Source of the DNA: an uncultured Muribaculaceae bacterium
GTDB lineage: Bacteria; Bacteroidota; Bacteroidia; Bacteroidales; Muribaculaceae
DNA: 64,000 nucleotides
Assembly (NCBI GenBank): GCA_964517875.1
Contig: CAZFEU010000001.1
Location: forward strand, 22,831-86,830
Direction: 5' to 3'
In this document: piece after piece, positions 3,912-47,628 of the stretch
How the letters are laid out: each line of letters starts with the position of its first letter
Position numbering within the stretch: the first letter of the stretch is position 1
The notes under the pieces: model-generated
Told to the model about the DNA's origin: nothing
Seen by the model: only the letters and a program-made list of their open reading frames with translations
The model's database searches: none
Translations under genes and position numbers: made by a program

Positions 3912-5843
3912 ATGTATACACTCCCTGTCGGCACCAAAATCACCTCACCTAAAACAACCTACACAATCACCGGCGTGCTCGGTCAGGGTGGGTTCGGTAT
4001 CACTTACAGTGCCACTGTTGTGACATATATTGGAGCAGTCAAGGTCAAAGCCAGCGTTGCTCTTAAGGAGCATTTTGTAAAGGCTGACTGCCTCAGGGAT
4101 AAGGAATCGACGAGTGTGTCATGCTCCGAGCCGGCGCAACAGCGCGTGTCCCTCGCCCGCAGGGATTTTTTGGGCGAAGCGCGCCGACTCTCAGGGTTAA
4201 GCGGCAAGAACCCCCACATAGTGGCTGTCAATGAGGTCTTTGAAGCCAACAACACCGCCTATTATGTAATGGAGATGCTCGAAGGGGAGTCGCTGCGCAA
4301 TTACGTTGCGGCTTGCGGCTGTCTGTCGGAGGAAGAGATGCTGTCTGTTATGACGCCGATTGTCGATGCTGTGGCATTTCTCCACCGCAACTGCATCACC
4401 CACCTCGACATCAAGCCACAAAACATAATGATTACTGCCGACGATAGCGGCGAGTTAAGGCCAGTGCTCATCGACTTCGGCCTGTCAAAGCACTACGATG
4501 AGAATGGCGAGGCCACGTCAACAATCAACTCGCAAGGTTACAGCGAGGGCTTCGCTCCCATCGAGCAATACAAGTGCATCACCACCTTCTCCCCGGCCAG
4601 CGACGTATACTCACTCGCCGCAACCATGGTTTATTGCCTTACAGGCAAGCGACTTCCAAGCGCATTCGACTTAAGACCCGAGACATTGGAGGCCGCAATC
4701 CCTGTCAACATATCTTCGAACCTGCGCCACACCCTGCTCCGCGCCCTGTCTATGCACGCCGAAGGACGCCAACCCGATGCCACCGCTCTCCTCACCGCCC
4801 TCGGCCGTAAGACAACGCCCATAGCAGTCCAGACTCCCAACGACGAAGCAACTGTCCTAAACGCGACACCCCCAAAACAAGCGCAGCTCAAGCCCATAGA
4901 AGCGAAGCAGAAGCCAAAAGGAAAGTCGAAAATTGGAGTGTGGGAGATAATCTTAACTCTGTCCCTTGCAATTATAGTCATTGGAGGTATAATCTATTCT
5001 AACAAGGATAATTTCTTCTCATCATCCATTAAAACTTATAACAAAACTACTACCACTCCATCAGCATCCAACTCCGAAGATGCTTATGTTTCTGACACAG
5101 AGGATTCCTCTTTACCAGCTGATGAATCGTCAGTTGCTGATGCTTTGCCTGTCGATACATCTACATCCAGTGGAAATCCATCCGAGGACATAAAGATTCA
5201 AGACACAAAAACTCAAACAGATTACCGCAGCAAGTATGACTATGTCGATAGTTTCCACGAAGGACTTGCCGGAGTCATGAAAGGAGAGAAATACGGCTTT
5301 ATCGACAAGATGGGCTATGAAGTAGTTCCACCAGTATATGATTACATTGATGCTTTCTACGAGGGGCGGGCTGTTGTCATGAAAGGAGGAAAATTTGGTT
5401 TTATTGACAAGTCGGGCAATGAGGTGGTTTCCCTCAAATACGACTGGGCTGGGAGATTCTCTGAAAGGAGGGCTGTAGTAGAGAAAGGTTTCAAATATGG
5501 GTACATTGATGCGTCTGGAAACGAGGTGATTCCGCTTGAATATGACTATGCAGAAATAATCACGTGTGGGAGGGGTAAGGTTAAGAAAGGTAAAGAATAT
5601 GGGTACATAGACAAGACCGGAACAGAAGTAATTCCTCTAAGATACGATGATGCCAAGACTTTCTCTGAAGGGATGGCCGCAGTTAAAAAAGATGGGAAAT
5701 TTGGTTTTATTGATAAAACAGGCATTGAGGTGATTCCATTCATATACAACGATATATGGACTGTTTTCAAAAATGGGAAGGCGCACGTCAAGAAGGACGG
5801 TGAATGGTTCGACATAGACAAAAACGGGAACAGAGTGGATTAA
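3912..5843 (+). CDS. Membrane-anchored Hanks-type Ser/Thr protein kinase with a C-terminal WG-repeat domain
   Basis: Has a glycine loop (GQGGFGITY), catalytic loop (HLDIKPQNIM), DFG (IDFGLSK) and an APE-like motif (APIEQ). A single TM helix (IGVWEIILTLSLAIIVIGGIIYS) is followed by an S/T/D-rich linker and six WG-type repeats of about 34 aa. Confidence 0.8.
   Translation: MYTLPVGTKITSPKTTYTITGVLGQGGFGITYSATVVTYIGAVKVKASVALKEHFVKADCLRDKESTSVSCSEPAQQRVSLARRDFLGEARRLSGLSGKNPHIVAVNEVFEANNTAYYVMEMLEGESLRNYVAACGCLSEEEMLSVMTPIVDAVAFLHRNCITHLDIKPQNIMITADDSGELRPVLIDFGLSKHYDENGEATSTINSQGYSEGFAPIEQYKCITTFSPASDVYSLAATMVYCLTGKRLPSAFDLRPETLEAAIPVNISSNLRHTLLRALSMHAEGRQPDATALLTALGRKTTPIAVQTPNDEATVLNATPPKQAQLKPIEAKQKPKGKSKIGVWEIILTLSLAIIVIGGIIYSNKDNFFSSSIKTYNKTTTTPSASNSEDAYVSDTEDSSLPADESSVADALPVDTSTSSGNPSEDIKIQDTKTQTDYRSKYDYVDSFHEGLAGVMKGEKYGFIDKMGYEVVPPVYDYIDAFYEGRAVVMKGGKFGFIDKSGNEVVSLKYDWAGRFSERRAVVEKGFKYGYIDASGNEVIPLEYDYAEIITCGRGKVKKGKEYGYIDKTGTEVIPLRYDDAKTFSEGMAAVKKDGKFGFIDKTGIEVIPFIYNDIWTVFKNGKAHVKKDGEWFDIDKNGNRVD
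5232..5840 (+). repeat. Six tandem ~34-aa WG (KWG-like) repeats, a coding repeat inside the kinase gene
   Basis: Periodic pattern YDy.d.F.eGrA.VkkggKyGfIDk.G.EViP, counted six times from aa 449 to the C-terminus. Confidence 0.6.
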
Positions 5844-9138: not shown

Positions 9139-9744
9139 ATGAAACGATTTCTACCTATAATCGCACTTTTAGCGCTATTCACATCATGTAGCCAATACCA
9201 GTTGGTTAACTCAGAGGTGTATAACAATGCTGATTTAGCATCGTACAAAACATTCCGTATAGTCACCCCCGAGGAAGGAAAATTGCCTCCTGGCATGGAG
9301 ATGGTGACATATTACAATATCGCCGCTGCAATACGCGAGCAGATGGTAGAACGTGGCTATACCGAAAATCCCACATCACCGCTGCTTATCAATATAGCCG
9401 TGACTACACAACGCGAGATTTCCACCGAACCAGCACTTCCTCCGGGAGGGTTCCCCTACAATGGACCGTATTATCCCTACTGGATGTATCCTCGCTACAA
9501 TTACTGGTCGAATTACTATGCTAATGCCCAAGTAATTACTGGAATATACAAAGAGGGTGTATTGACCATGGACATGGTGAATATCAATGAAAAGATTCCG
9601 CTCTATTCATCATCGGTGGCAACCATTATCAACAATGGAGGATCAGGTCCTTCGCAATACCGCAACCTCGAAGCAATTGCTCAGGCAGTAGAAGTGTTGT
9701 TCTCCAAATATCCTGTACCCCTGCTTCCGCAATATCGTAAATAA
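9139..9744 (+). CDS. Lipoprotein, probably DUF4136 family
   Basis: Lipoprotein signal MKRFLPIIALLALFTSC. The family assignment is from memory of similar sequences only. Confidence 0.5.
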   Translation: MKRFLPIIALLALFTSCSQYQLVNSEVYNNADLASYKTFRIVTPEEGKLPPGMEMVTYYNIAAAIREQMVERGYTENPTSPLLINIAVTTQREISTEPALPPGGFPYNGPYYPYWMYPRYNYWSNYYANAQVITGIYKEGVLTMDMVNINEKIPLYSSSVATIINNGGSGPSQYRNLEAIAQAVEVLFSKYPVPLLPQYRK

Positions 9745-9764
9745 GACAATCAAATTGATAATCG

Positions 9765-10409
9765 CTATACTTTATTAAGGCTCGGTACGAGAATCATCTC
9801 AACACCGGGCCAATTTTTTGCCAGATATTGGCGGAGATAATCTTGAGTGTCATTAGCTATCACCTTATCATTGTCGAAATAAGTATTATAGAGTAGCGAA
9901 TGCAGACGCAACCCCCTTGTTTGTAATGCTTCGAGAGAGAGTATCGTATGATTGATGGATCCAAGACGACCATTAGTAACGAGAGCAACAGGGATATGCC
10001 TTGTAAGGGGATAGTCAATGGTAAGCATTTCATCGGTCATTGGCACCATTAATCCGCCTGCACCTTCAATCAGCACCACATCATATAGCGATTCAAGGCG
10101 TTTAGTAGCTTCGTCAATCAATGTAATATCCACTTTGGCGCCATCAAGCTTTGCAGCTAAATGAGGTGAGGCGGGGTAGCTGAAAATAATAGGAGCTGAG
10201 GTGTGGTCAAGGTCTACTGGCTGCATTCCTATCCCCATGATGTGCCGATGTACTTCAATATCCTCCGAATACTCATGATTTCCTGTCTGAATAGGCTTTT
10301 CAGTGATTACCGAAAAGCCTTGATCCATGTATCGTTTAGCCAACCACCCGGTTACATAACTTTTGCCCGCATCGGTATCGATGCCCGATATAAATATTGT
10401 CTCGCTCAT
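9765..10409 (-). CDS. bioD: Dethiobiotin synthase
   Basis: N-terminal P-loop ISGIDTDAGKSYVTG, about 214 aa, last gene of the bio operon. Confidence 0.85.
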   Translation of the reverse strand: MSETIFISGIDTDAGKSYVTGWLAKRYMDQGFSVITEKPIQTGNHEYSEDIEVHRHIMGIGMQPVDLDHTSAPIIFSYPASPHLAAKLDGAKVDITLIDEATKRLESLYDVVLIEGAGGLMVPMTDEMLTIDYPLTRHIPVALVTNGRLGSINHTILSLEALQTRGLRLHSLLYNTYFDNDKVIANDTQDYLRQYLAKNWPGVEMILVPSLNKV

Positions 10410-15081: not shown

Positions 15082-15939
15082 ATGGGCCGTATACTCAAAT
15101 ATGCACGTATCATAATATCAGCGATTATTTTGCTGATGGTCACCGCATTGTTGGCCGCACCTACCCCTATTATCATAGATATTGCGCATTGGATAGTTGA
15201 AATACAGCTCTTTACGCTTGCTTTGACATTCTCTGTAGGATGGTTTATGCTATGGATTGCCATCACCCTTGTGTTTGGTCGTATATATTGCTCCACCATA
15301 TGCCCGTTAGGTACGTTGATGGACATATTCTCAAGTTTGCGACGTAGACGTATCTATCGTTTCGTAGCACCCATGGCCAGACTTCGATATCTTATACTCA
15401 CGTTAGCCGTAATTTCGGCTATCCTCGGTATTAGTTGGATATATCAATATCTTGACCCTTATAGCGATTTTGCAATTATAATTGATGCTTTTTCACATCT
15501 TGGTGAGGCATCAGTAATAGGGTTGGTTATCGCGATGGTGCTATTGGCTATTGTAATCGCTGCTGCTTTATGGCGAGGACGTATATTGTGCAATACTCTT
15601 TGTCCTGTGGGCACGACCTTGGGCTCAGTGAGCCGCTACTCGATAATGCATATTGATATCGATACTGACCTCTGCGTCAACTGTCGGCGGTGTGCCGATG
15701 TGTGCAAAGCCCAATGCATCGACCTGAATGACCACGTAGTCGATTCATCGCGGTGCGTCAATTGCTTCAACTGCCTACCCGTATGTCCCAATGACGCAAT
15801 ACATTATACTACTCAACGGAAACAACTGTCAATACCCATGATGCAGGCGCTTTCGACAGGAGCTGCTTCGGCAATGACATCACCCTGCGCATCGGCGAGG
15901 ACAAAAATGAATAATAACAAGAATATCAATCCAAGATGA
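15082..15939 (+). CDS. Membrane-bound 4Fe-4S binding protein (NapH/MauN-like polyferredoxin)
   Basis: Several TM helices with two CxxxCPxG motifs ([18 protein letters not shown]) and two ferredoxin motifs ([23 protein letters not shown]). Confidence 0.7.
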
Positions 15940-39963: not shown

Positions 39964-42558
39964 ATGAATTTCAATAACTTTACAATCAAGTCGCAGGAAG
40001 CTATCCAGAAGGCTGTAGAAATCACCCGCAGCGCTGGTAGTCAGGCCATAGAGCCTGTTCACCTGCTCAAAGGCGTTATCACTGAGGGAGAGACATTAGT
40101 GAAGTTCATATTCCAGAAAATCGGGGCCAATATTCAGCTACTACAGCAGCAAGTTGACCGCGAAATATCTTCGCTCCCCAAAGTGTCGGGTGGCGAGCCC
40201 TACCTGAGTCGTACATCAAATGATGTATTGCAACGCGCTCTTGACATCGCAAAAAAAGAGGGTGATGAATATGTAACACTTGAGGCTTTGCTGATGGCGA
40301 TCTTCATCATCAACTCCCCCGCTTCAACCATTCTTAAAGACGCAGGCTTGAGCGAGAAGGAGCTGAAAGCAGCCGTTGATGAACTCCGCAAAGGTAAGAA
40401 AGCAACAGATCAAAACTCGGAGGAAACTTACAACTCCTTATCGAAATATGCGATCAATCTCAATGAGAGAGCTCGTCAAGGCAAGCTTGACCCTGTAATC
40501 GGGCGTGATGACGAAATACGTCGCGTGCTTCAGATTCTGAGTCGTCGCACGAAGAACAACCCAATGCTCATAGGTGAGCCTGGTACTGGTAAGACCGCCA
40601 TTGCCGAAGGTCTTGCTATGCGTATCGTAAGAGGCGATGTGCCCGAAAATTTAAGATCAAAGCAGATTTATTCGCTTGATATGGGCGCACTTGTAGCCGG
40701 CGCTAAGTATAAAGGAGAGTTTGAAGAGCGACTCAAAGCCATCGTCAACGAAGTAACCCAAGCTGATGGAGAGATAATCCTATTTATCGACGAGATCCAC
40801 ACCCTTGTCGGAGCTGGCAAAGGGGAGGGAGCAATGGATGCTGCCAATATCCTAAAACCTGCTTTGGCTCGTGGCGAGCTACGCTCAATCGGCGCCACAA
40901 CTCTCGATGAATATCAAAAATATTTTGAGAAAGATAAGGCACTTGAACGTCGTTTCCAGAAAGTGATGGTAAATGAGCCTGACGAGATCAGTGCAATTGC
41001 CATATTGCGTGGACTTAAGGAGCGCTACGAGAACCACCACAAAGTGCGTATCCGTGACGAAGCGATTATTGCCGCCGTACAGCTTTCTGAACGCTATATT
41101 ACTGACCGTTTCCTCCCCGATAAAGCGATCGACCTGGTAGATGAGGCCGCTGCAAAGCTTCGTCTTGAGATTGACTCTGTGCCTCAGGCACTCGATGAAA
41201 TCACACGTCGCATTGCGCAGAAAGAGATTGAACGCGAAGCAATTAAGCGCGAGGGAGATAAGGCCAAGGTGAAAGATATCGAAAAGGAGATTGCCACTAT
41301 GCGTGAACAAGAAAAGGAATATACCGCTAAGTGGAAAGCCGAAAAGGATCTTATCAACCGCATTCAGCAGAATAAAATTGATATCGAACAACTCAATTTC
41401 GATGCCGAGCGTGCTGAGCGTGAAGGTGATTACGCTCGTGTGGCCGAAATTCGCTACTCGCGTATCCAGCAAAAAGAGCAGGAGAACAAAGATATTCAGG
41501 AACAACTGAATATGATGCAAGGCGACCGAGCCCTTATAAAGGAGGAAGTAGATGCCGAGGATATAGCCGACGTAGTATCGCGCTGGACCGGGATACCTGT
41601 CAACAAGATGATACAGAGCGAGCAGGAAAAACTGCTCCACCTTGAGGAGGAGCTCCACCATAGAGTTGTAGGACAGGATGATGCCATCCGTGCCATAGCT
41701 GACGCTGTGCGCCGCTCGCGTGCTGGCCTTAACGACCCACGCCGTCCTATCGGATCGTTCATCTTCCTTGGTACTACCGGCGTTGGTAAAACTGAGCTTG
41801 CAAAGGCATTGGCCGAATACCTGTTTGACGACGACTCGATGATGACTCGTATCGATATGAGCGAGTATCAGGAGAAGCACTCTGTGAGCCGACTCGTAGG
41901 AGCGCCTCCCGGATACGTCGGCTATGATGAAGGTGGCCAGCTTACTGAGGCTGTGCGTCGTAAGCCATATTCAGTTGTGCTGTTTGATGAGATAGAAAAG
42001 GCTCACCCGGATGTATTCAACATTCTGCTCCAGGTGCTCGACGACGGACATCTTACGGATAATAAGGGCCGACTTGTCAACTTCAAGAACACTATCATCA
42101 TTATGACTTCAAACATGGGCTCCGCTCTGATTCGTGATAATTTCTCTAAAATGACTCACGAAAACCGCGATGAGACCATTGAAAAGACCAAGAATGAAGT
42201 TCTTGAGCTTCTCAAGCAGACAATACGTCCTGAATTCCTGAACCGTATTGATGAAATCATCATGTTCACCCCCCTTAATCAGAATGAGATTGAGGAGATT
42301 GTAGGACTTCAGATCGACTCAGTGAAGCGTATGCTCGCCAAAAATGGTGTGGAATTGCAGATTACACCTGCAGCACTCCACTTCCTGGCCGAAGAGGGTT
42401 ACGACCCCGAGTTTGGTGCACGCCCCGTTAAGCGAGTTATTCATCGTATGGTGCTCAACCGCCTGTCGAAGGACATCCTCGCACAGAAGGTCGACCGCAC
42501 TCGTCCTATCGTCATTGACTATGATAAAGAAAATGACGATGTAATCTTTACCAACTGA
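39964..42558 (+). CDS. clpB: ATP-dependent chaperone ClpB
   Basis: 864 aa with two AAA+ modules ([10 protein letters not shown] and [11 protein letters not shown]) separated by a long coiled-coil M-domain. Confidence 0.95.
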
Positions 42559-42578
42559 CCAAGATAATTCATATACTA

Positions 42579-42616
42579 CCGGGGAGATAGCTATAGTAGC
42601 TATCTCCCCGGTTTTT
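42579..42616. terminator. Strong stem-loop between the convergent clpB gene and the oxidoreductase operon (intrinsic terminator)
   Basis: Perfect 15-bp stem CCGGGGAGATAGCTA/TAGCTATCTCCCCGG with a 3-nt loop, followed by TTTTT on the plus strand. Confidence 0.7.
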
Positions 42617-42637
42617 ATTGTGATATATTTCTCTTGA

Positions 42638-43606
42638 TTAGACCGTGATTACGATTTTGCCGGCAAGGCTCCTTTGCTCGGCAAGCGTGTGAGCTTCGTC
42701 TATATGCTGCAATGTGTACTTGGCTGCTATGACGGGATGGATATTATGAGCCTCAATAAGTTTCAGCATAGCATCAATTTGCTCTTGTGTTGGATTATTG
42801 CTATAAAAGCCTGTGAGATAAACGCCTGAGGGTATTTCTTTAATAGGGTCAAAATCCTTAAGGGAGAAAACATTACCGAGCAAACCGGTATGACACACTA
42901 TGCCATGAAGAGCGGTGACCCGTAATGATTGTGGTATAGTTGCTGCCCCAATAAGCTCAAGCACTTTGGTTGCTCCATGTGGGTACGCTCTTAAGAATCG
43001 CTTGACAAAATTATCTCCTTCGAGTACCACGCCGTCGGCACCTGCATCCAGCAGTAATTGTACTTTCTTATCGTTGCGTGTCGTTGCGATAACTTTTGCT
43101 CCCATTGCTTTACCAAGCTGAATTGCCGCAAGCCCGACGGTTGAAGTGCCTCCCCTTATCAACAAAGTGTCACCAACGTGTAATTGCAGTGATAATGTCA
43201 GTGAGCCATAAGCTGTATAAAATGTCTCTGGCACAGCAGCAAGTTCGCAGTCGGTAAGGGAGGAGTCAACAGCAAACACATGGCTCTCGGGCAATAATGC
43301 ATATTCAGCATAACTACCATTGAAACTGCGCCCCATGCCACCCATCATCGCAATGACGGTTTGAGAAATTTTAAATTTTGAGTCAGACTTATCCACGATT
43401 TCTCCAACACATTCTATGCCGGGAATGATTGGTGTGTGGATATACGGTCTATCGGCCTCAAACTGGCGCAACAAAACTTCTGAATGATTAATGCCAAAAG
43501 CTTTGATACGCACTAACACCCAGCCTGGTTTAACTTGTGGTATTGGCACATCAGTCAAAGTAAGATCAGAGGCGGCACAACAATGGTTGATTAGTACAGC
43601 TTTCAT
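42638..43606 (-). CDS. Zinc-type alcohol dehydrogenase-like / quinone oxidoreductase (MDR superfamily)
   Basis: Has a GroES-like N-terminus and a Rossmann motif (IRGGTSTVGLAAIQL). The start is set at MKAVLINH (ATG 43606..43604), which forms an ATGA overlap with the stop of the upstream rSAM gene. Confidence 0.8.
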   Translation of the reverse strand: MKAVLINHCCAASDLTLTDVPIPQVKPGWVLVRIKAFGINHSEVLLRQFEADRPYIHTPIIPGIECVGEIVDKSDSKFKISQTVIAMMGGMGRSFNGSYAEYALLPESHVFAVDSSLTDCELAAVPETFYTAYGSLTLSLQLHVGDTLLIRGGTSTVGLAAIQLGKAMGAKVIATTRNDKKVQLLLDAGADGVVLEGDNFVKRFLRAYPHGATKVLELIGAATIPQSLRVTALHGIVCHTGLLGNVFSLKDFDPIKEIPSGVYLTGFYSNNPTQEQIDAMLKLIEAHNIHPVIAAKYTLQHIDEAHTLAEQRSLAGKIVITV

Positions 43607-44622
43607 ATTTCTTTCCAACATTGAGGGTCGGGTGCATAAAACGAGTGGTGATAACCGTATGCCACGGCCGGACATCCGCGACAGAATCTGAGCAACTCGC
43701 ACTTTGCACATTTTTGAAATTTATCAAACTGGCGGTACTCGTTCATCTTTTCACCAGTCCACAAATCGTGAATATCTGTTTTGAAAAGATTGCCTACCAC
43801 GCTATCAAAACGTCGGCAAGCCATTACTTTCCCATCAGGCTGGATGGTGAAGTGGCAATCTCCGCAGTGGCAACCGTCGTAAATAGCATCGGGGTCGGTA
43901 TCATCGGGAATCTTAAAGAGTCCCTTTTCAAAAAGATATAGAGTCCAAAGGTGATCTTTAAGATTGAATATTGTATGAGCATCTTTATGTTGCTCGAATT
44001 TCTTCCAAATTGTATCAAGGAAGTTGCGATAATCAATAGGGGTGATATGGGTTGATTTCTCATCAGATGTCGGGCAATATCGTCCGAACGCAAACACATC
44101 AACACCTTTTTCCACCACCAAGTCAATAATATCAGGAATCTCTTGAATATTAGTACCTGAAACGGTGGTCATTACAGCCACTCGTATACCATTGCGTTTG
44201 AGCACATCAATCTTCTCAACCGTAGTGTCAAACGACCCTTTCTTTCGAATTCCATCGTGAGTGTCGCGCATGCCGTCGATTGAAAGTTGATATTTCTCAC
44301 AGCCGTAATACTTAAGGCGTTGGCACACTTCATCTGTGATATGAAAGGGATTGCCAAGAATGGTAAATGGGATTTTGTGCTCTTTCACTAACTTCAATAT
44401 CTTCCAAAAATCACGATGTAGAATTGGATCACCACCAGTGATATAGAGATATGGAAGCTTATGCATCTTTCTGCACATTTCAACACATTGTTCTATTACC
44501 ATCCGTGCTTTTGACAAGGGCATTTCGATAAGTCTGGGATGTCCCTCAGCGAATATGTAGCAGTGTTCACAGCGTTGGTCGCAACTATCAGTTATATGCC
44601 ATTGAAAAGCGAAATACTCCAT
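43603..44622 (-). CDS. Radical SAM/SPASM-domain peptide-modifying enzyme
   Basis: Has the N-terminal CX3CX2C motif (CDQRCEHC) and a GGDP motif. The C-terminal Cys-rich SPASM-like region is CHCGDCHFTIQPDGKVMAC...CAKCELLRFCRGC...DPQC. It sits directly downstream of a Cys-rich repeat peptide. Confidence 0.85.
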   Translation of the reverse strand: MEYFAFQWHITDSCDQRCEHCYIFAEGHPRLIEMPLSKARMVIEQCVEMCRKMHKLPYLYITGGDPILHRDFWKILKLVKEHKIPFTILGNPFHITDEVCQRLKYYGCEKYQLSIDGMRDTHDGIRKKGSFDTTVEKIDVLKRNGIRVAVMTTVSGTNIQEIPDIIDLVVEKGVDVFAFGRYCPTSDEKSTHITPIDYRNFLDTIWKKFEQHKDAHTIFNLKDHLWTLYLFEKGLFKIPDDTDPDAIYDGCHCGDCHFTIQPDGKVMACRRFDSVVGNLFKTDIHDLWTGEKMNEYRQFDKFQKCAKCELLRFCRGCPAVAYGYHHSFYAPDPQCWKEI

Positions 44623-44654
44623 ACCTAATATTTTTTACAATCGTAAAATTGAAA

Positions 44655-44687
44655 GCTCCAATGCGCCTACTTCAGGAGCATTGGAGC
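44655..44687 (-). terminator. Intercistronic stem-loop between the precursor peptide and the rSAM gene (putative leaky terminator or attenuator)
   Basis: Perfect 10-bp stem GCTCCAATGC/GCATTGGAGC with a 13-nt loop, followed on the minus-strand transcript by UUUCAAUUUU. It lies 32 nt before the maturase ATG. Confidence 0.55.
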
Positions 44688-44706
44688 AATGATTGTCAAA
44701 GCCGGA

Positions 44707-44880
44707 TTATTTCTCACCGGCTCCACATGCCGAACCGCATGCTGCGGGCTTGGGCTCAGGCTTTTCATCGCCAGCACCACAAGCCGAACCACATGCACCC
44801 GCAGGTTTCTCGGTTTCAGCTGAAGCACACAGATAAGCCTGTGCGGTGTGCTTTACAGCACCATTGTTGATACGCTTCAT
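44707..44880 (-). CDS. 57-aa Cys-rich tandem-repeat peptide, putative rSAM substrate (ACGX-repeat-like precursor)
   Basis: Manual translation gives MKRINNGAVKHTAQAYLCASAETEKPAGACGSACGAGDEKPEPKPAACGSACGAGEK, running from ATG to TAA. The two ACGSACGAG copies differ at 5 synonymous and 0 non-synonymous positions. It is below the 60-aa cutoff of the supplied ORF track. Confidence 0.7.
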   Translation of the reverse strand: MKRINNGAVKHTAQAYLCASAETEKPAGACGSACGAGDEKPEPKPAACGSACGAGEK

Positions 44881-44920
44881 CGTAAATTTGTATTTTGGTT
44901 AAACTTGAAATATTCAGTGG

Positions 44921-44928
44921 CAAATGTA
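44921..44928 (-). promoter_or_regulatory. Candidate -7 promoter element (TAcaTTTG on the minus strand) for the peptide-rSAM operon
   Basis: The reverse complement of CAAATGTA matches TAnnTTTG, about 40 nt upstream of the peptide ATG. Confidence 0.35.
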
Positions 44929-45101
44929 GAATATTATTTTTAAGGAATCAAGTAGAGGAAATTTTATCACTTAGTAACCTTTTTCTCGCTTTTGTGTAGC
45001 AACTACATCCTAATTGAATCATTTGTAAAAAAGAATTTTTCCGGGTAGAATTCCAGTGGCTTTTGAGCGACTCTATATTTGCCTAACCATTGAAATTGGT
45101 A

Positions 45102-45109
45102 TATCTTTG
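45102..45109 (+). promoter_or_regulatory. Candidate -7 promoter element (TAtcTTTG) for the HxlR-family regulator
   Basis: TAnnTTTG match about 22 nt upstream of the ATG at 45131. A second match, TAtaTTTG, lies at 45074..45081. Confidence 0.35.
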
Positions 45110-45130
45110 TGTCGAAAAGGTGAAAAAATC

Positions 45131-45517
45131 ATGAGAAGAAAAGAACAGCTTAATTCCATTATAGAGATCTGTCCGGTGCGCAATGTGGTAGCACGTTTTG
45201 GCAACAAATGGGCACTGTTGGTGCTCCTTGTAATAAGTGAAAACGAGCCTATTCGATACAATGAGCTCGGACGCAAAATCCCTGACATATCATCACGTGT
45301 GCTCTCGGGGACTTTACGTACCCTCGAGGCCGATGGTCTGGTAAGTAGAAAACTTTACAATGAGGTGCCGGCAAGAGTAGAGTATTCTCTCACTGAAATA
45401 GGACATTCACTTATCCCCATAATCATGCAATTGACCGAGTGGGCACAGAACAATATGAAAACCATAATTGCACACCGAAAGAATAGTGAAATCGATGATA
45501 TGTCAGATAAATCCTGA
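45131..45517 (+). CDS. HxlR-family winged-helix transcriptional regulator
   Basis: CPVRNVVARFGNKWALLVLL...RYNEL...ISSRVLSGTLRTLEADGLVSRK.Y.EVPARVEYSLTE is a classic HxlR/MarR-like signature. The start is set at ATG 45131. Confidence 0.85.
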   Translation: MRRKEQLNSIIEICPVRNVVARFGNKWALLVLLVISENEPIRYNELGRKIPDISSRVLSGTLRTLEADGLVSRKLYNEVPARVEYSLTEIGHSLIPIIMQLTEWAQNNMKTIIAHRKNSEIDDMSDKS

Positions 45518-45557
45518 AATTAAAAAATAACAATCAAAAATAACGCTGTTATCACAA

Positions 45558-46421
45558 TTATTTTTTGTTAGCCGAGCGCCGCATCATGAAGATAGCAGCT
45601 GCGGTGAATAGAAGTGAGAGGATGACTATTGGCAGACTTCCTTCACCTTGAGCGATGTGGTCGATATCGGTTTCAGACGACAATTCGCCATGCGCTGCCA
45701 TCCACGAGGTTATCACCACCAATGAGTTATTAAGCGCATGAAGAATTATAGGGAGCCATAGCGAACCGCTCCACCACATTGAGTAGCCAAAAAATGCTCC
45801 GAGCAATACGCGCGGCACGAACCCATAGAGCTGAAGATGCATTGCGCTAAATATGATGGCCGCTATCCATATCGCCAGGTGAGGATTGATACGAGAGCAT
45901 ATTAGCAGTTTCTGAATGCCCCCACGGAAAAACATTTCTTCAGCTATGCCTGTAAGCACTCCCACTATTAGTACCGAGATAATCAACGAACCAATCGAAG
46001 TGCCACCAAGCATAACTTGGGTTGTAAGACGTGCATCCTCCTCAAGCCGTCTTGCCCATCCCATGCTGTCAGGTAGATTCCATCCGTCGTTCCACTCAAT
46101 CACGGCATTCATAGCCGGTATACTTATCAGTAGCGCCAGTATCGCCCAAAGTGTAGTGACGAATCTCGGTCCATGCATCACTTCAAGCAATTCACCGGGA
46201 TAACGTGTGGTGAGCAGTGCGGTGACAATAGCGGGTAGTATAAACACGAGCACATCTTGTAGCACCGCCATTATGCGTAATGAAGCAACCGTGCCACCAA
46301 TTACGTTTGAAAGAAGCTGTGTGAGCAGTGACGTTACCACAAGCATGAATATCATCAGGCAAAAGAGCATACCCAGTGCAAGTGAGGGCTTTACGGCGGT
46401 GCGATATCGGTTGTAAGTCAT
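45558..46421 (-). CDS. CPBP-family intramembrane glutamic endopeptidase (CAAX protease-like)
   Basis: Multi-TM protein with EEMFFRG, FSAMHL and HALNN motifs. Confidence 0.8.
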   Translation of the reverse strand: MTYNRYRTAVKPSLALGMLFCLMIFMLVVTSLLTQLLSNVIGGTVASLRIMAVLQDVLVFILPAIVTALLTTRYPGELLEVMHGPRFVTTLWAILALLISIPAMNAVIEWNDGWNLPDSMGWARRLEEDARLTTQVMLGGTSIGSLIISVLIVGVLTGIAEEMFFRGGIQKLLICSRINPHLAIWIAAIIFSAMHLQLYGFVPRVLLGAFFGYSMWWSGSLWLPIILHALNNSLVVITSWMAAHGELSSETDIDHIAQGEGSLPIVILSLLFTAAAIFMMRRSANKK

Positions 46422-47092
46422 AGATAGAAGTCTTTTGTTAACTGCGAGAATTCTGGAGAAGAAATATAAAGTGATTGTTTAATTGTCGGCGCTAATTGTT
46501 TTGATAATAGCGCCATGACACGACGTGCAGGCTTGCCTTCACAATGCGACACCGCCACTTCGATATTAATGTGTAGGTAATGCATCGCTGCTGAGTAAGT
46601 CAATACATCACGACGTATATAGGGGAGAATTAATGCAAGTTTACCACAGTCGGTAAGCAGGTCGGCCGCATGTTCGATTAAACGGTCCAATGGCAAAGAT
46701 GAATCTGACCTTGCCATGGCTCGCCTTGGGTCGGGGCTGAGCAATGATTCATCAAAGAATGGAGGATTGCTTACAATAAGGTCGTAGCGATGCTGCGGAT
46801 AGAAATCAAGAAAATCATCATTTATCACTTTAACCTGATGGCTCCAGATTGAGCGTCTTATATTCAGGGATGCTTCTGCGGCTGATGCCGAATCAATTTC
46901 CAAGGCGGTTATATCGCTCACACCTCGCTGGGCAAGCATCAGGGCGATTAATCCCGTGCCTGTGCCTATGTCGAGGGCCGTAGACACACCATCAACAGGC
47001 ACCCATGCGCCGAGTAAGACACCGTCAGTGCCTACTTTCATGGCATTGATATCTTGGTTTATCGTGAATTGCTTGAATCGAAAATCAGTCAT
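46418..47092 (-). CDS. tRNA1(Val) (adenine37-N6)-methyltransferase-like SAM-dependent methyltransferase
   Basis: F.F.QF.I.Q......VGTDGVLLGAW, DIGTGTGLIALMLAQR and SNPPFF motifs. Confidence 0.75.
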   Translation of the reverse strand: MTDFRFKQFTINQDINAMKVGTDGVLLGAWVPVDGVSTALDIGTGTGLIALMLAQRGVSDITALEIDSASAAEASLNIRRSIWSHQVKVINDDFLDFYPQHRYDLIVSNPPFFDESLLSPDPRRAMARSDSSLPLDRLIEHAADLLTDCGKLALILPYIRRDVLTYSAAMHYLHINIEVAVSHCEGKPARRVMALLSKQLAPTIKQSLYISSPEFSQLTKDFYL

Positions 47093-47552
47093 GGTGATAT
47101 GGTTCGCCTCGAAGAATTGTCATTGCGCGATATAGCTGCTCGGTGATGAACAGTCGCACCATCTCATGGGGGAAAGTCATCTGCGAAAGTGACAATAGTG
47201 CATTGGCCCTGTCGTACATTGCCTGAGAAAAACCGTATGGGCCACCAACCACTATGATCCACCGGCTTGGGAGGGTTGACATCTTTCGATCGATATCATG
47301 GGCAAATTCACGCGAGGTCATCTGTCGGCCACGTTCATCGAGAAGCGTCACATAGTCGGCAGCGGAGATAGTGGCAAGCATGGCCTCTCCTTCAAGCACT
47401 TTTTGACGCTCAGGCCCCTGATTGCGCTTAACATCAGGAATTACCCTAATATCCATAGGCACATAGCGGCGCACCCTACTCGCATATTCCTCAATGCCTT
47501 GCGACAAATAGCCGGTAGCCGTCTTTCCTACAACAAGCAGTGTAATCTTCAT
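47085..47552 (-). CDS. rlmH: 23S rRNA (pseudouridine1915-N3)-methyltransferase
   Basis: SPOUT fold of about 155 aa with a MKITLLVVGK start, GGPYGFS and a C-terminal EQLYRA..I..G.PYHH. Confidence 0.85.
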   Translation of the reverse strand: MKITLLVVGKTATGYLSQGIEEYASRVRRYVPMDIRVIPDVKRNQGPERQKVLEGEAMLATISAADYVTLLDERGRQMTSREFAHDIDRKMSTLPSRWIIVVGGPYGFSQAMYDRANALLSLSQMTFPHEMVRLFITEQLYRAMTILRGEPYHHD

Positions 47553-47628
47553 GGCTGAATTTGAATTTGTTGGCAAAGGTAAGTATTTATCGGGAATTCA
47601 AAAAAATTGCGTTTTCCGAATTTTTGTG

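Follow-up and report, generated by a model that had tools for sequence, protein, structure and literature searches.

An ACGX-repeat peptide and its radical SAM maturase form part of a conserved four-gene module in a Muribaculaceae bacterium and may have a cytoplasmic role in thiol stress

Among characterised enzymes, the closest in sequence to the one described here is SbtM (TIGR04082), a radical SAM (S-adenosylmethionine) protein with a SPASM-type C-terminus that acts on Cys or Sec of a ribosomal peptide and turns the residue into a thio(seleno)oxazole, with the loss of four hydrogens (PMC11002830). The 5-thiooxazoles made by MNIO enzymes also arise in a Cys-Gly context, in the EGKCG repeats of fontiphorin and the K-C-G of MmrA. 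These two peptides, with oxazolin and the bufferins, belong to the captophorins, widely conserved peptides with repeated Cys-Gly units that are tied to copper and oxidative stress rather than to antibiosis, and that are made by an O2-dependent DUF692 MNIO with a DUF2063 partner. Captophorin precursors of the DUF2282 class are Sec-exported and periplasmic. The anaerobic sulfatase-maturating enzyme (anSME), which has a sulfatase as its substrate, abstracts a C-beta hydrogen of a Cys in a short motif, and PapB-type enzymes use a Cys-X3-Asp/Glu motif. The ACGX system (TIGR04340 rSAM_ACGX and TIGR04341 target_ACGX) appears to be defined only computationally; a full-text search of the literature by its family and gene names turned up no paper about the system. 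Here we analyse an ACGX locus at positions 42638-45517 of a 64,000-nucleotide stretch of DNA from an uncultured Muribaculaceae bacterium (contig CAZFEU010000001.1 of GCA_964517875.1). This whole stretch is called the window, and coordinates refer to it.

The locus is a typical member of the catalogued ACGX system and no new kind of system. Its maturase AcgM (acgM, 43603-44622, minus strand, 339 aa) scores 555.8 bits against TIGR04340 (cut-off 400) over the full length of the model (1-341 of 341), and its precursor AcgA (acgA, 44707-44880, minus strand, 57 aa; MKRINNGAVKHTAQAYLCASAETEKPAGACGSACGAGDEKPEPKPAACGSACGAGEK) scores 35.6 bits against TIGR04341, the 'ACGX-repeat peptide' (cut-off 28). 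Homologues carry the names acgA and acgM in RefSeq, and the Pfam family PF27855 (Target_ACGX) is recorded on homologous loci. A first-pass annotation, made from the letters of the window alone, had described a minimal locus like those for a ribosomally synthesised and post-translationally modified peptide (RiPP), without naming a family; by these matches the locus belongs to one already catalogued. The window locus shares with the ACGX family both the precursor directly upstream of the maturase and the repeat architecture, and differs from it in nothing. New here are the four-gene module, the swapping of its reductase, the reciprocal linkage to one reductase subfamily, the conserved attenuator hairpin and the connection to SirTM and Zn-macrodomain (Zn-Macro) proteins.

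Read on the minus strand, the locus consists of a promoter, acgA, a hairpin, acgM, a gene for a quinone oxidoreductase (QOR)-type NAD(P)H-dependent medium-chain dehydrogenase/reductase (MDR; 42638-43606, minus strand, 322 aa; Pfam ADH_N and ADH_zinc_N) and a second hairpin. The gene of an HxlR-family (MarR/DUF24-type) regulator (45131-45517, plus strand, 128 aa; PF01638, 98.2 bits) is transcribed divergently. The first-pass annotation had described promoter, peptide, stem-loop, radical SAM/SPASM enzyme, ATGA-coupled oxidoreductase and HxlR regulator, and all of them are present where it had placed them. The real start of the MDR gene is ATG 43606, which overlaps the acgM stop codon as ATGA, and a longer mechanical open reading frame (ORF) starting at 43711 was rejected; hxlR likely starts at ATG 45131 and not at GTG 45056. 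However, what had been taken for a three-gene unit is, on comparison, a conserved unit of four genes, namely hxlR, acgA, acgM and a reductase gene that encodes an MDR, a nitroreductase or a PNPOx-ferredoxin fusion. Partner genes were counted up to 3.5 kb from acgM in the 58 genome loci whose flanks reached at least 1.5 kb on its upstream and 2.5 kb on its downstream side, the comparison as a whole covering ~160 loci; 52 of the 58 have an HxlR homologue. The order divergent HxlR, acgA, acgM, MDR recurs in Desulfotomaculum defluvii, in a Caldicellulosiruptoraceae isolate, in Treponema, in Clostridium felsineum and in Desulfosporosinus fructosivorans.

A reductase is encoded in 55 of the 58 loci, mostly directly downstream of acgM, by an MDR gene (42 loci), a nitroreductase gene (PF00881, 13 loci) or a fusion of PNPOx to a 2x[4Fe-4S] ferredoxin (7 loci), and in one further locus the MDR gene is disrupted. 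MDR orthologues adjoining acgM show 49-78% identity, and in loci that lack an MDR a nitroreductase fills the same slot, 3-40 nt after acgM. The coupling of the reductase gene to acgM, by ATGA or by gaps of 0-30 nt, is kept across phyla. MDRs linked to ACGX loci group closely as one subfamily; even between phyla they are 52-72% identical, and they have signatures in common, ALMGGMGRSF(D/N)GSYAEY being one. When a metagenome scan was seeded with this subfamily as a reciprocal test, 58 of the loci obtained had enough upstream sequence; acgM lay within 3.5 kb in 52 of them, and two more had a split or rearranged acgM. One locus (L115) combined HxlR, nitroreductase and MDR without acgA and acgM (acgAM). 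The window MDR itself scores 178.6 bits against the PIG3-type quinone oxidoreductase model, below its cut-off, and no close solved structure was found for it, the best PDB match being the quinone oxidoreductase 4dup (112 bits).

To describe the surroundings of the module, all ORFs within 5 kb of acgM were clustered in 141 loci (~1.02 Mb of flanks). The recurrent neighbours are MDR (100 loci), HxlR (90), SirTM-like proteins (28), nitroreductases (23) and macrodomain proteins (21), followed by flavodoxin-like FMN reductases (10), PNPOx-ferredoxin fusions (10), a secreted beta-helix protein (10), DUF1848 proteins (9) and cupins (6). No transporter or peptidase family recurs in these 141 loci, and ABC ATPase-like ORFs were seen in only 3 of them. 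Neither MftB/PqqD-type RiPP recognition element (RRE) proteins nor MftE/PqqF-type peptidases, MNIO (DUF692) enzymes, DUF2063/RRE partners, metal efflux ATPases or chaperones were found among the recurrent neighbours. Nor did the loci and AcgA offer the combination of C39 peptidase-ABC export and a GG-type leader. The absence of exporter, peptidase and RRE protein, which the first-pass annotation had noticed in the window, therefore extends to the family, and orthologous loci do not consistently bring in an exporter or a peptidase. The recurrent partners HxlR, MDR, nitroreductase, PNPOx-ferredoxin, flavodoxin-like reductase, cupin and SirTM/Zn-Macro are without exception redox or stress proteins of the cytoplasm, which favours a redox or metal role inside the cell. 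The beta-helix protein is the only recurrent secreted protein: it is right-handed, ~362 aa long, bears a signal peptide and is encoded ~1 kb downstream of the MDR gene in 10 Bacteroidales/Marinilabiliales loci (L056, L059, L063, L070 and L110 among them), that is, in one lineage only. MerR-family regulators occur near some ACGX loci and, occasionally, MFS or MatE genes near others.

The precursor is strongly conserved. AcgA is built of a leader with an HTAQAYL motif and two ACGSACGAG(D)EK units with a KPEPKP linker between them. Read directly, the two units differ at five synonymous and zero non-synonymous sites, and over core residues 29-57 of 19 same-length orthologues there are 297 synonymous versus 22 non-synonymous codon differences; judged by these counts, acgA is a real gene under strong purifying selection. 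It is the only ORF of its type in the window, and orthologues are missing only from a few related loci that are degenerate or cut short by the end of a contig. We compared 79 precursors from Bacteroidota, Bacillota and Spirochaetota, with 401 core cysteines. The leader usually contains the motif [HR][ST]AQx[YVIF][LM]; a second class has a long leader with MxKLNxLNxW and a third has MALSNLxGWN. Each precursor has 3-8 core cysteines and nearly always ends in Lys or Arg. Gly follows the cysteine in 399 of 401 cases, and the preceding residue is Ala (366), Ser (25) or Gly (7), together 398 of 401. At position +4 there is Cys in 180 cases, Asp in 137 and Glu in 63, so that Asp or Glu stands there in 200 of the 221 cysteines without a Cys at +4. 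In whole sub-families, on the other hand, the peptide ends in ...ACGAK or the +4 position is taken by Lys, and some lineages have single-Cys units only, AACGA[AS]DKP. These counts and the single-Cys lineages point to a minimal unit of small residue-Cys-Gly-x-x-(Asp/Glu or Cys), and between Bacteroidota, Bacillota and Spirochaetota the core hardly varies. The window peptide is hydrophilic, with no hydrophobic segment (9-residue Kyte-Doolittle maximum 1.18, grand average of hydropathy -0.47), in agreement with the earlier remark that its N-terminus is no signal peptide, and a double-glycine leader is indeed missing from it.

AcgM, an oxygen-sensitive enzyme, carries the cluster motif CX3CX2C at C14, C18 and C21 and matches the Pfam Radical_SAM and SPASM domains (SPASM 41.8 bits). 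For AcgM and its relatives the second-best family is consistently SbtM (179.1 bits, E 1.5e-52, for AcgM), and a search of a representative library gave a continuum of uncharacterised AcgM-like proteins, and no characterised protein closer to AcgM than SbtM. Unlike the peptide of the SbtM system, AcgA is multi-repeat and has no selenocysteine. The anSME model gives 73 bits (cut-off 349) and the ranthipeptide PapB family NF047865 gives 65.9 bits (cut-off 340), so AcgM falls outside the latter; moreover, its N-terminus leaves no room for an RRE domain, which the ranthipeptide synthases PapB and CteB possess. An AF2 model of AcgM (pLDDT 78.7) has SkfB, SuiB and anSME, which are peptide-modifying SPASM or twitch enzymes, as its nearest folds. 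The best full-length match is to anSME (TM 0.74/0.70), an enzyme of ~360-370 aa that lacks an RRE as AcgM does but has a sulfatase substrate, whereas AcgM has none. No close solved structure was found, the best being SkfB with 61 bits. In the library, six proteins (P0131, P0133, P0140, P0148, P0159 and P0176) contain AcgM-like radical SAM domains scoring 285-381 bits against TIGR04340, below its cut-off, fused to N-terminal domains of 270-470 residues, with a PapB-like radical SAM domain in front in P0176; they form uncharacterised sister families.

That position +1 is invariably Gly and position -1 a small residue would fit a heterocyclisation that involves the backbone, in the same context as in the MNIO-made 5-thiooxazoles. 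A thiooxazole-type oxidation of the cysteines is our tentative choice for the product of AcgM, held at clearly less than even confidence. The sequence CG(A/S)(G/A)(D/E) of AcgA also resembles the PapB-type motif; a thioether product we rate lower, as unlikely, and what is left of our estimate goes to products of other kinds.

Between acgA and acgM lies a spacer of 84 nt, in which a hairpin (44655-44687, minus strand) is followed by UUUCAAUUUU, a U-rich tail (44645-44654). The 93-nt intergenic fold has a dG of -25.3 kcal/mol and a z-score of -3.0. A hairpin occurs at the equivalent position with z < -2 in 37 of 40 loci (median z -4.3), and its stem sequences differ, so it is the structure and not the sequence that is conserved. 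No Rfam family for this hairpin, and no riboswitch or known RNA in the locus, was found. The hairpin is likely a partial terminator or an mRNA-stabilising element that leaves more transcript of the peptide than of the enzyme. A layout of precursor, hairpin and enzyme typically yields far more precursor than enzyme transcript. At the other end of the operon, a perfect 16-bp hairpin lies between the MDR gene and clpB (42578-42612, both strands; 86-nt fold dG -33.3 kcal/mol, z -6.95). Its T-run is on the plus (clpB) side only, which makes it a weaker intrinsic terminator for the minus-strand operon. The operon terminator of the first-pass annotation is thus present as a hairpin but not at the strength that the name implies, and the element is better described as a putative shared, bidirectional terminator.

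Upstream of acgA, the alignment of 33 orthologous Muribaculaceae hxlR-acgA regions shows a -7 box of the Bacteroidetes type, TAnnTTTG, whose distance to the acgA start codon is 43-51 nt in 26 regions and 31 or 82-106 nt in the other seven. In the window the operon promoter spans 44921-44951 on the minus strand, with the -33 element TTG (44949-44951) 20 nt upstream of the -7 box TAcaTTTG (44921-44928). A mirror -7 box for hxlR is conserved in the 33 regions as gCAAAgtTA on the opposite strand; its candidate in the window, TATCTTTG, which matches TAnnTTTG, is at 45102-45109 on the plus strand, as seen in the alignment and by direct reading. Just upstream of the acgA -33 element, 20 of the 33 regions share a block AAAAGCGA(G/T)AAA(A/T)AGGTTACT, which in 12 of the 33 forms an inverted repeat GTTAC-N14-GTAAC and in L028 a looser GTTAC-N17-GTAAC. 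The window version, AAAAGCGAGAAAAAGGTTACT (44973-44993, minus strand), is a candidate HxlR operator. A repeat search of the window intergenic region found no palindromic operator, and the block becomes visible only through the alignment.

The regulator belongs to a family with characterised members. In the characterised MarR/DUF24 regulators an N-terminal Cys is the sensor of redox changes or electrophiles; the nitroreductase HypO is under the control of HypR and the quinone oxidoreductase QorA under that of QorR, and YodB governs both an azoreductase and a nitroreductase (PMC3351151). As in these pairs (HypR-HypO, QorR-QorA, YodB-AzoR1/YodC), the ACGX loci place an HxlR-family Cys regulator next to a nitroreductase or a QOR-type MDR; unlike the ACGX loci, these regulons have no peptide/radical SAM pair. 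Nitroreductases and QOR-type reductases, the main alternatives in the ACGX loci, are thus both found among the targets of DUF24 regulators. The window regulator keeps the N-terminal Cys ('ICPVRN'), and the Cys-Pro motif is present in 69 of 70 HxlR homologues. It therefore has the HxlR domain, the N-terminal Cys and the adjoining oxidoreductase operon of a MarR/DUF24 thiol switch, and redox sensing is predicted for it.

A further connection was found in a subset of loci to which the window does not belong. SirTM homologues are encoded in 28 of the 141 loci (~20%) and Zn-Macro proteins in 21, with the genes inside the operon, which in Treponema has the order acgA-acgM-Sir2-Macro-MDR. The best PDB match of the SirTM-like proteins is S. 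pyogenes SirTM (5a3a, 194-210 bits). In L084, which scores 194, the equivalents of Asn118, of Gln137 (which replaces the catalytic His) and of Arg192 are kept, as in class M sirtuins. The macrodomain reaches 317 bits against the 'protein-ADP-ribose hydrolase' model NF003163 (cut-off 272). In staphylococci and streptococci, SirTM and Zn-Macro are encoded with the lipoyl carrier GcvH-L, its ligase and the oxidoreductases OYE and LLM, and the pair has been proposed to gate a lipoyl-based scavenger of reactive oxygen species (PMC11490716, PMC12440151). GcvH-L has been stated to be the only known target of SirTM, which leaves the targets of 'lone' pairs to be found (PMC11490716). The SirTM-bearing ACGX operons match the logic of this extended operon of S. 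aureus and S. pyogenes (lipoyl-GcvH-L, LplA, OYE/LLM): in both, a small carrier with sulfur groups and the enzyme that equips it with its reactive group come together with SirTM/Zn-Macro, an NAD(P)H/flavin oxidoreductase and a tie to oxidative stress. They differ in the carrier, which is a lipoylated H-protein in one case and a putatively radical-SAM-modified repeat peptide in the other. DUF1848 proteins adjoin SirTM/Macro in the ACGX operons of 9 loci (for example on a plasmid of Roseburia sp. 831b, L167 5219-10939, and in L082 10598-12115).

Six close SirTM homologues were looked up. Two are in full ACGX operons (Clostridium felsineum and Desulfosporosinus fructosivorans), two (Priestia megaterium and Bacillus coreaensis) belong to modules of HxlR, SirTM, Macro and MDR that lack acgAM, and two are SirTM-Macro pairs in other contexts. 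In P. megaterium (L169 5412-8852) and B. coreaensis (L172 4436-9029) a divergent HxlR gene, SirTM, Zn-Macro and MDR are followed by an OpuA-type ABC system, and the P. megaterium MDR is 49% identical to that of the window. Among these few genomes, the two anaerobic Clostridia have acgAM with the module, and the two aerobic Bacillaceae have the module alone. The acgAM-less modules indicate that a stress module of HxlR and MDR, to which SirTM/Macro may be added, predates the acgAM pair or extends more widely than it does.

With these partners in mind, we suggest, giving it an even chance, that AcgA is a cytoplasmic peptide induced by thiol stress, whose cysteines are modified by AcgM and which works with the reductase to buffer redox state, electrophiles or metals. 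According to this model, the HxlR-type regulator would sense thiol-reactive oxidants or electrophiles through its N-terminal Cys and then, from the intergenic region that hxlR and the operon share, turn on acgA, acgM and the reductase gene. The hairpin after acgA would keep peptide mRNA above enzyme mRNA, so that the peptide is made in bulk. AcgM, which is anSME-like and has no RRE, would bind the peptide directly and abstract a hydrogen at each Cys of the small-residue-Cys-Gly motif, most likely leading to an oxidised Cys of the 5-thiooxazole type, as with SbtM, or alternatively to a thioether to Asp/Glu (or Cys) at +4. With neither leader peptidase nor exporter, the whole small hydrophilic peptide would remain in the cytoplasm of the anaerobe, where its modified sulfur groups could buffer oxidants, electrophiles or thiophilic metals. 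The co-transcribed reductase (MDR, nitroreductase or PNPOx-ferredoxin) would recycle the peptide or detoxify the same stressor, and in the ~20% of loci with a SirTM/Zn-macrodomain pair ADP-ribosylation may add an on/off switch that mirrors the lipoyl-GcvH-L antioxidant operon. An intracellular, cofactor-like role had already been put forward in the first-pass annotation; the 141 loci without recurrent export genes and the redox and stress partners speak for it, while the function itself we infer.

One may speculate further and see in AcgA a radical-SAM-matured sulfur-redox carrier, for example with paired 5-thiooxazole thiols, that would be a cytoplasmic antioxidant or electrophile trap of strict anaerobes, recycled by the reductase and gated by ADP-ribosylation. 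It would then do in anaerobes what lipoyl-GcvH-L does elsewhere, and would be the physiological target that many 'lone' SirTM/Zn-Macro pairs have so far lacked. We hold this full version to be unlikely.

Several observations weigh against the cytoplasmic buffer model. HxlR-SirTM-Macro-MDR modules exist without acgAM in P. megaterium and B. coreaensis, so the reductase, whose subfamily occurs without the peptide in these aerobic Bacillaceae, need not act on AcgA and may have a substrate of its own; AcgA may only be co-regulated with it. The idea of the MDR as a strictly dedicated tailoring enzyme is weakened by the same two modules. QOR-type MDRs and nitroreductases are not known as disulfide or thiooxazole reductases. 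As to the chemistry, AcgM scores below the SbtM cut-off of 350 and lacks the N-terminal extension of ~195 residues of SbtM (the match begins at model position 198); heme-pathway AhbD-type models, at 141 bits, follow SbtM at no great distance; and the Cys(i)-Asp/Glu(i+4) pattern suits a PapB-like thioether equally well. The operator candidate in the window has only one clear half-site (left GGTTAC), the right one being degenerate, and SirTM and Macro genes are absent from the window. Finally, an exporter encoded elsewhere, or generic export, would be compatible with the missing linked exporter.

Other roles have to be weighed against the same evidence. The peptide may handle metals, AcgM making thiooxazole or other sulfur ligands and AcgA being a cytoplasmic, metallothionein-like chelator of Cu(I) or thiophilic metals, an anaerobic counterpart of the MNIO-made captophorins. 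The 3-8 core Cys-Gly units with paired CxxxC spacing would suit this, as would the thiooxazole chemistry of the nearest characterised enzyme, the binding of copper by EGKCG thiooxazole repeat peptides, with their link to copper and oxidative stress, and the MerR-family regulators near some loci. In addition, MNIOs need O2, and the ACGX enzyme is a radical SAM protein whose carriers are mostly anaerobes. However, the conserved regulator is of the HxlR/DUF24 family and not a CsoR, CueR or ArsR protein, metal efflux ATPases and chaperones are not among the recurrent neighbours, AcgA lacks the signal peptide that would be expected by analogy with Sec-exported captophorin precursors, and chelation alone would leave the near-obligate NAD(P)H/flavin reductase partner unexplained. 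We therefore consider metal handling distinctly unlikely. AcgA may instead be the source of a peptide-derived cofactor, on the model of PQQ and mycofactocin, the modified units being excised by housekeeping proteases and the product being used by the MDR or nitroreductase. Mycofactocin is likewise found with its dehydrogenases, a radical SAM/SPASM maturase is here tightly co-inherited with one dehydrogenase subfamily, and identical repeats would give several copies of the product per precursor. Yet an RRE of the MftB/PqqD type or a peptidase of the MftE/PqqF type is in none of the loci, and the MDR subfamily of the acgAM-less Bacillaceae shows no dependence on an AcgA cofactor. The reductase is also exchanged between unrelated folds, and the conserved hairpin implies stoichiometric rather than catalytic amounts of peptide, which together make this explanation quite improbable.

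Precursor, radical SAM/SPASM maturase and attenuator hairpin also make up the classical layout of a RiPP locus, and the product may be a conventional secreted antimicrobial or signal whose export and proteolysis would be generic or encoded elsewhere, an idea that could draw on the CPBP intramembrane protease gene adjacent in the window and on the occasional MFS or MatE genes elsewhere. The CPBP gene, however, is not syntenic, and no exporter, peptidase or immunity family recurs in the 141 loci. The core is near-invariant across phyla, unlike fast-evolving bacteriocin cores, the peptide is hydrophilic and acidic/lysine-rich with neither signal nor double-glycine leader, and stress and redox proteins, the regulator included, surround it. 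A secreted product is for us very improbable. No more credit is due to co-regulation alone, in which HxlR and MDR, with or without SirTM/Macro, would form a self-standing system for electrophile detoxification and acgAM would share its promoter while having an unrelated cytoplasmic role, for example in Fe-S or sulfur handling. We rate it as low as secretion. That the module exists without acgAM in Bacillaceae, that L115 lacks the pair, and that DUF24-regulated reductases are common as stand-alone units are all in keeping with it. But in anaerobes the linkage is tight both ways (55/58 and 52/58), translational coupling is kept across phyla, and a missing MDR is replaced by another reductase directly after acgM.

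AcgM is widely distributed. A protein search gave 3,046 relatives at E <= 1e-30, the best 120 of which are 64-100% identical; across phyla AcgM is 60-83% identical, and its nearest relatives are from Muribaculaceae metagenome-assembled genomes (MAGs), with up to 83% identity. The identical protein is on record only on a 1-kb Logan contig and one NCBI contig. These best matches and the TAnnTTTG promoters would by themselves place the window in Bacteroidales, probably in Muribaculaceae. At least 589 species-representative genomes encode acgM. Carriers include Muribaculaceae, Prevotellaceae, Paludibacteraceae, Marinilabiliales, Treponema, Oscillospiraceae, Vallitaleaceae and one Methanosarcinaceae MAG, to which the protein search adds Desulfotomaculum and a plasmid search Methanosphaera, Roseburia, Clostridium and Subdoligranulum. 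They are mostly anaerobes of gut, rumen and sediment. The archaeal acgM of the Methanosarcinaceae MAG (L062 9682-11023, 63% identity) stands beside a frameshifted precursor that keeps a KRSAQNYI leader motif, with repeats ACSPCA / CACSFSCASGY in which Ser replaces the Gly after Cys. This locus has neither HxlR nor MDR, a small 2x[4Fe-4S] ferredoxin ORF lies upstream, and the precursor may reflect a nanopore indel or a decaying variant. Signs of decay or of assembly trouble are seen elsewhere too: the precursor repeats of L070 (~9333-9990) collapse into a run of Ns, acgM is split in L090 (3915-4971), the MDR gene is split in L020 (11017-11880), and L128 (~4700-4990) retains a truncated acgA remnant without acgM.

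Around the locus, the housekeeping flanks named in the first-pass annotation hold up, ClpB, RlmH and topoisomerase IV subunit A (parC) being confirmed. The gene clpB (39964-42558, plus strand) is convergent to the MDR gene. On the other side, 41 bp beyond hxlR, lies a gene overlooked by that annotation, which encodes a CPBP/Rce1-like intramembrane protease (45558-46421, minus strand; PF02517, 71 bits); a TrmN-like tRNA methyltransferase gene (46418-47092, minus strand) is ATGA-coupled to it, and rlmH (47085-47576, minus strand) overlaps the TrmN-like gene. This odd housekeeping string is syntenic with no ACGX locus. A CPBP homologue was found within 10 kb of acgM in none of 80 related genome loci, so the gene is probably unrelated to the ACGX system, and with its translational coupling to trmN we rejected it as a peptidase or immunity protein of the system. 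Elsewhere in the window, 15664-15801 (plus strand) matches the 4Fe-4S part of the PNPOx-ferredoxin weakly (36% over 47 aa) and probably belongs to an unrelated ferredoxin-domain gene.

Following the distribution and synteny of the unit, as had been proposed, gave a two-sided answer: the module recurs across phyla, but clpB, CPBP, trmN and rlmH are near acgM in none of the 80 genome loci, so the flanks of the module are not conserved. In the window, GC content is 0.39-0.45 over the four-gene module (42600-45600) compared with 0.47-0.49 in the clpB and CPBP-trmN-parC flanks. Copies of acgAM occur on megaplasmids of Clostridia, and plasmid matches were limited to five large non-mobilisable replicons. 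No integrase or transposase adjoins the window locus and, together with the kind of plasmids matched, this led us to reject an origin as a mobile element. The low GC and the unshared flanks suggest a cassette-like acquisition of the module. The statement that the locus is a chromosomal resident rather than part of a mobile island therefore stands for this site, while the module itself behaves like a cassette.

The acgAM pair is thus widespread and highly conserved across phyla, and the literature searched assigns it neither function nor chemistry. As a compact and tractable three-gene target, the ACGX locus lends itself to heterologous reconstitution. Bacteroidales are not known to have any of the usual thiol buffers, namely glutathione, bacillithiol and mycothiol. 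If AcgA is indeed a cytoplasmic stress molecule, it would represent a new, post-translational route to a defence like that of low-molecular-weight thiols in anaerobes, and radical SAM RiPP chemistry would extend past antibiotics and quorum signals. Beyond the GcvH-L operon, SirTM/Zn-macrodomain signalling would also gain a definite substrate candidate.

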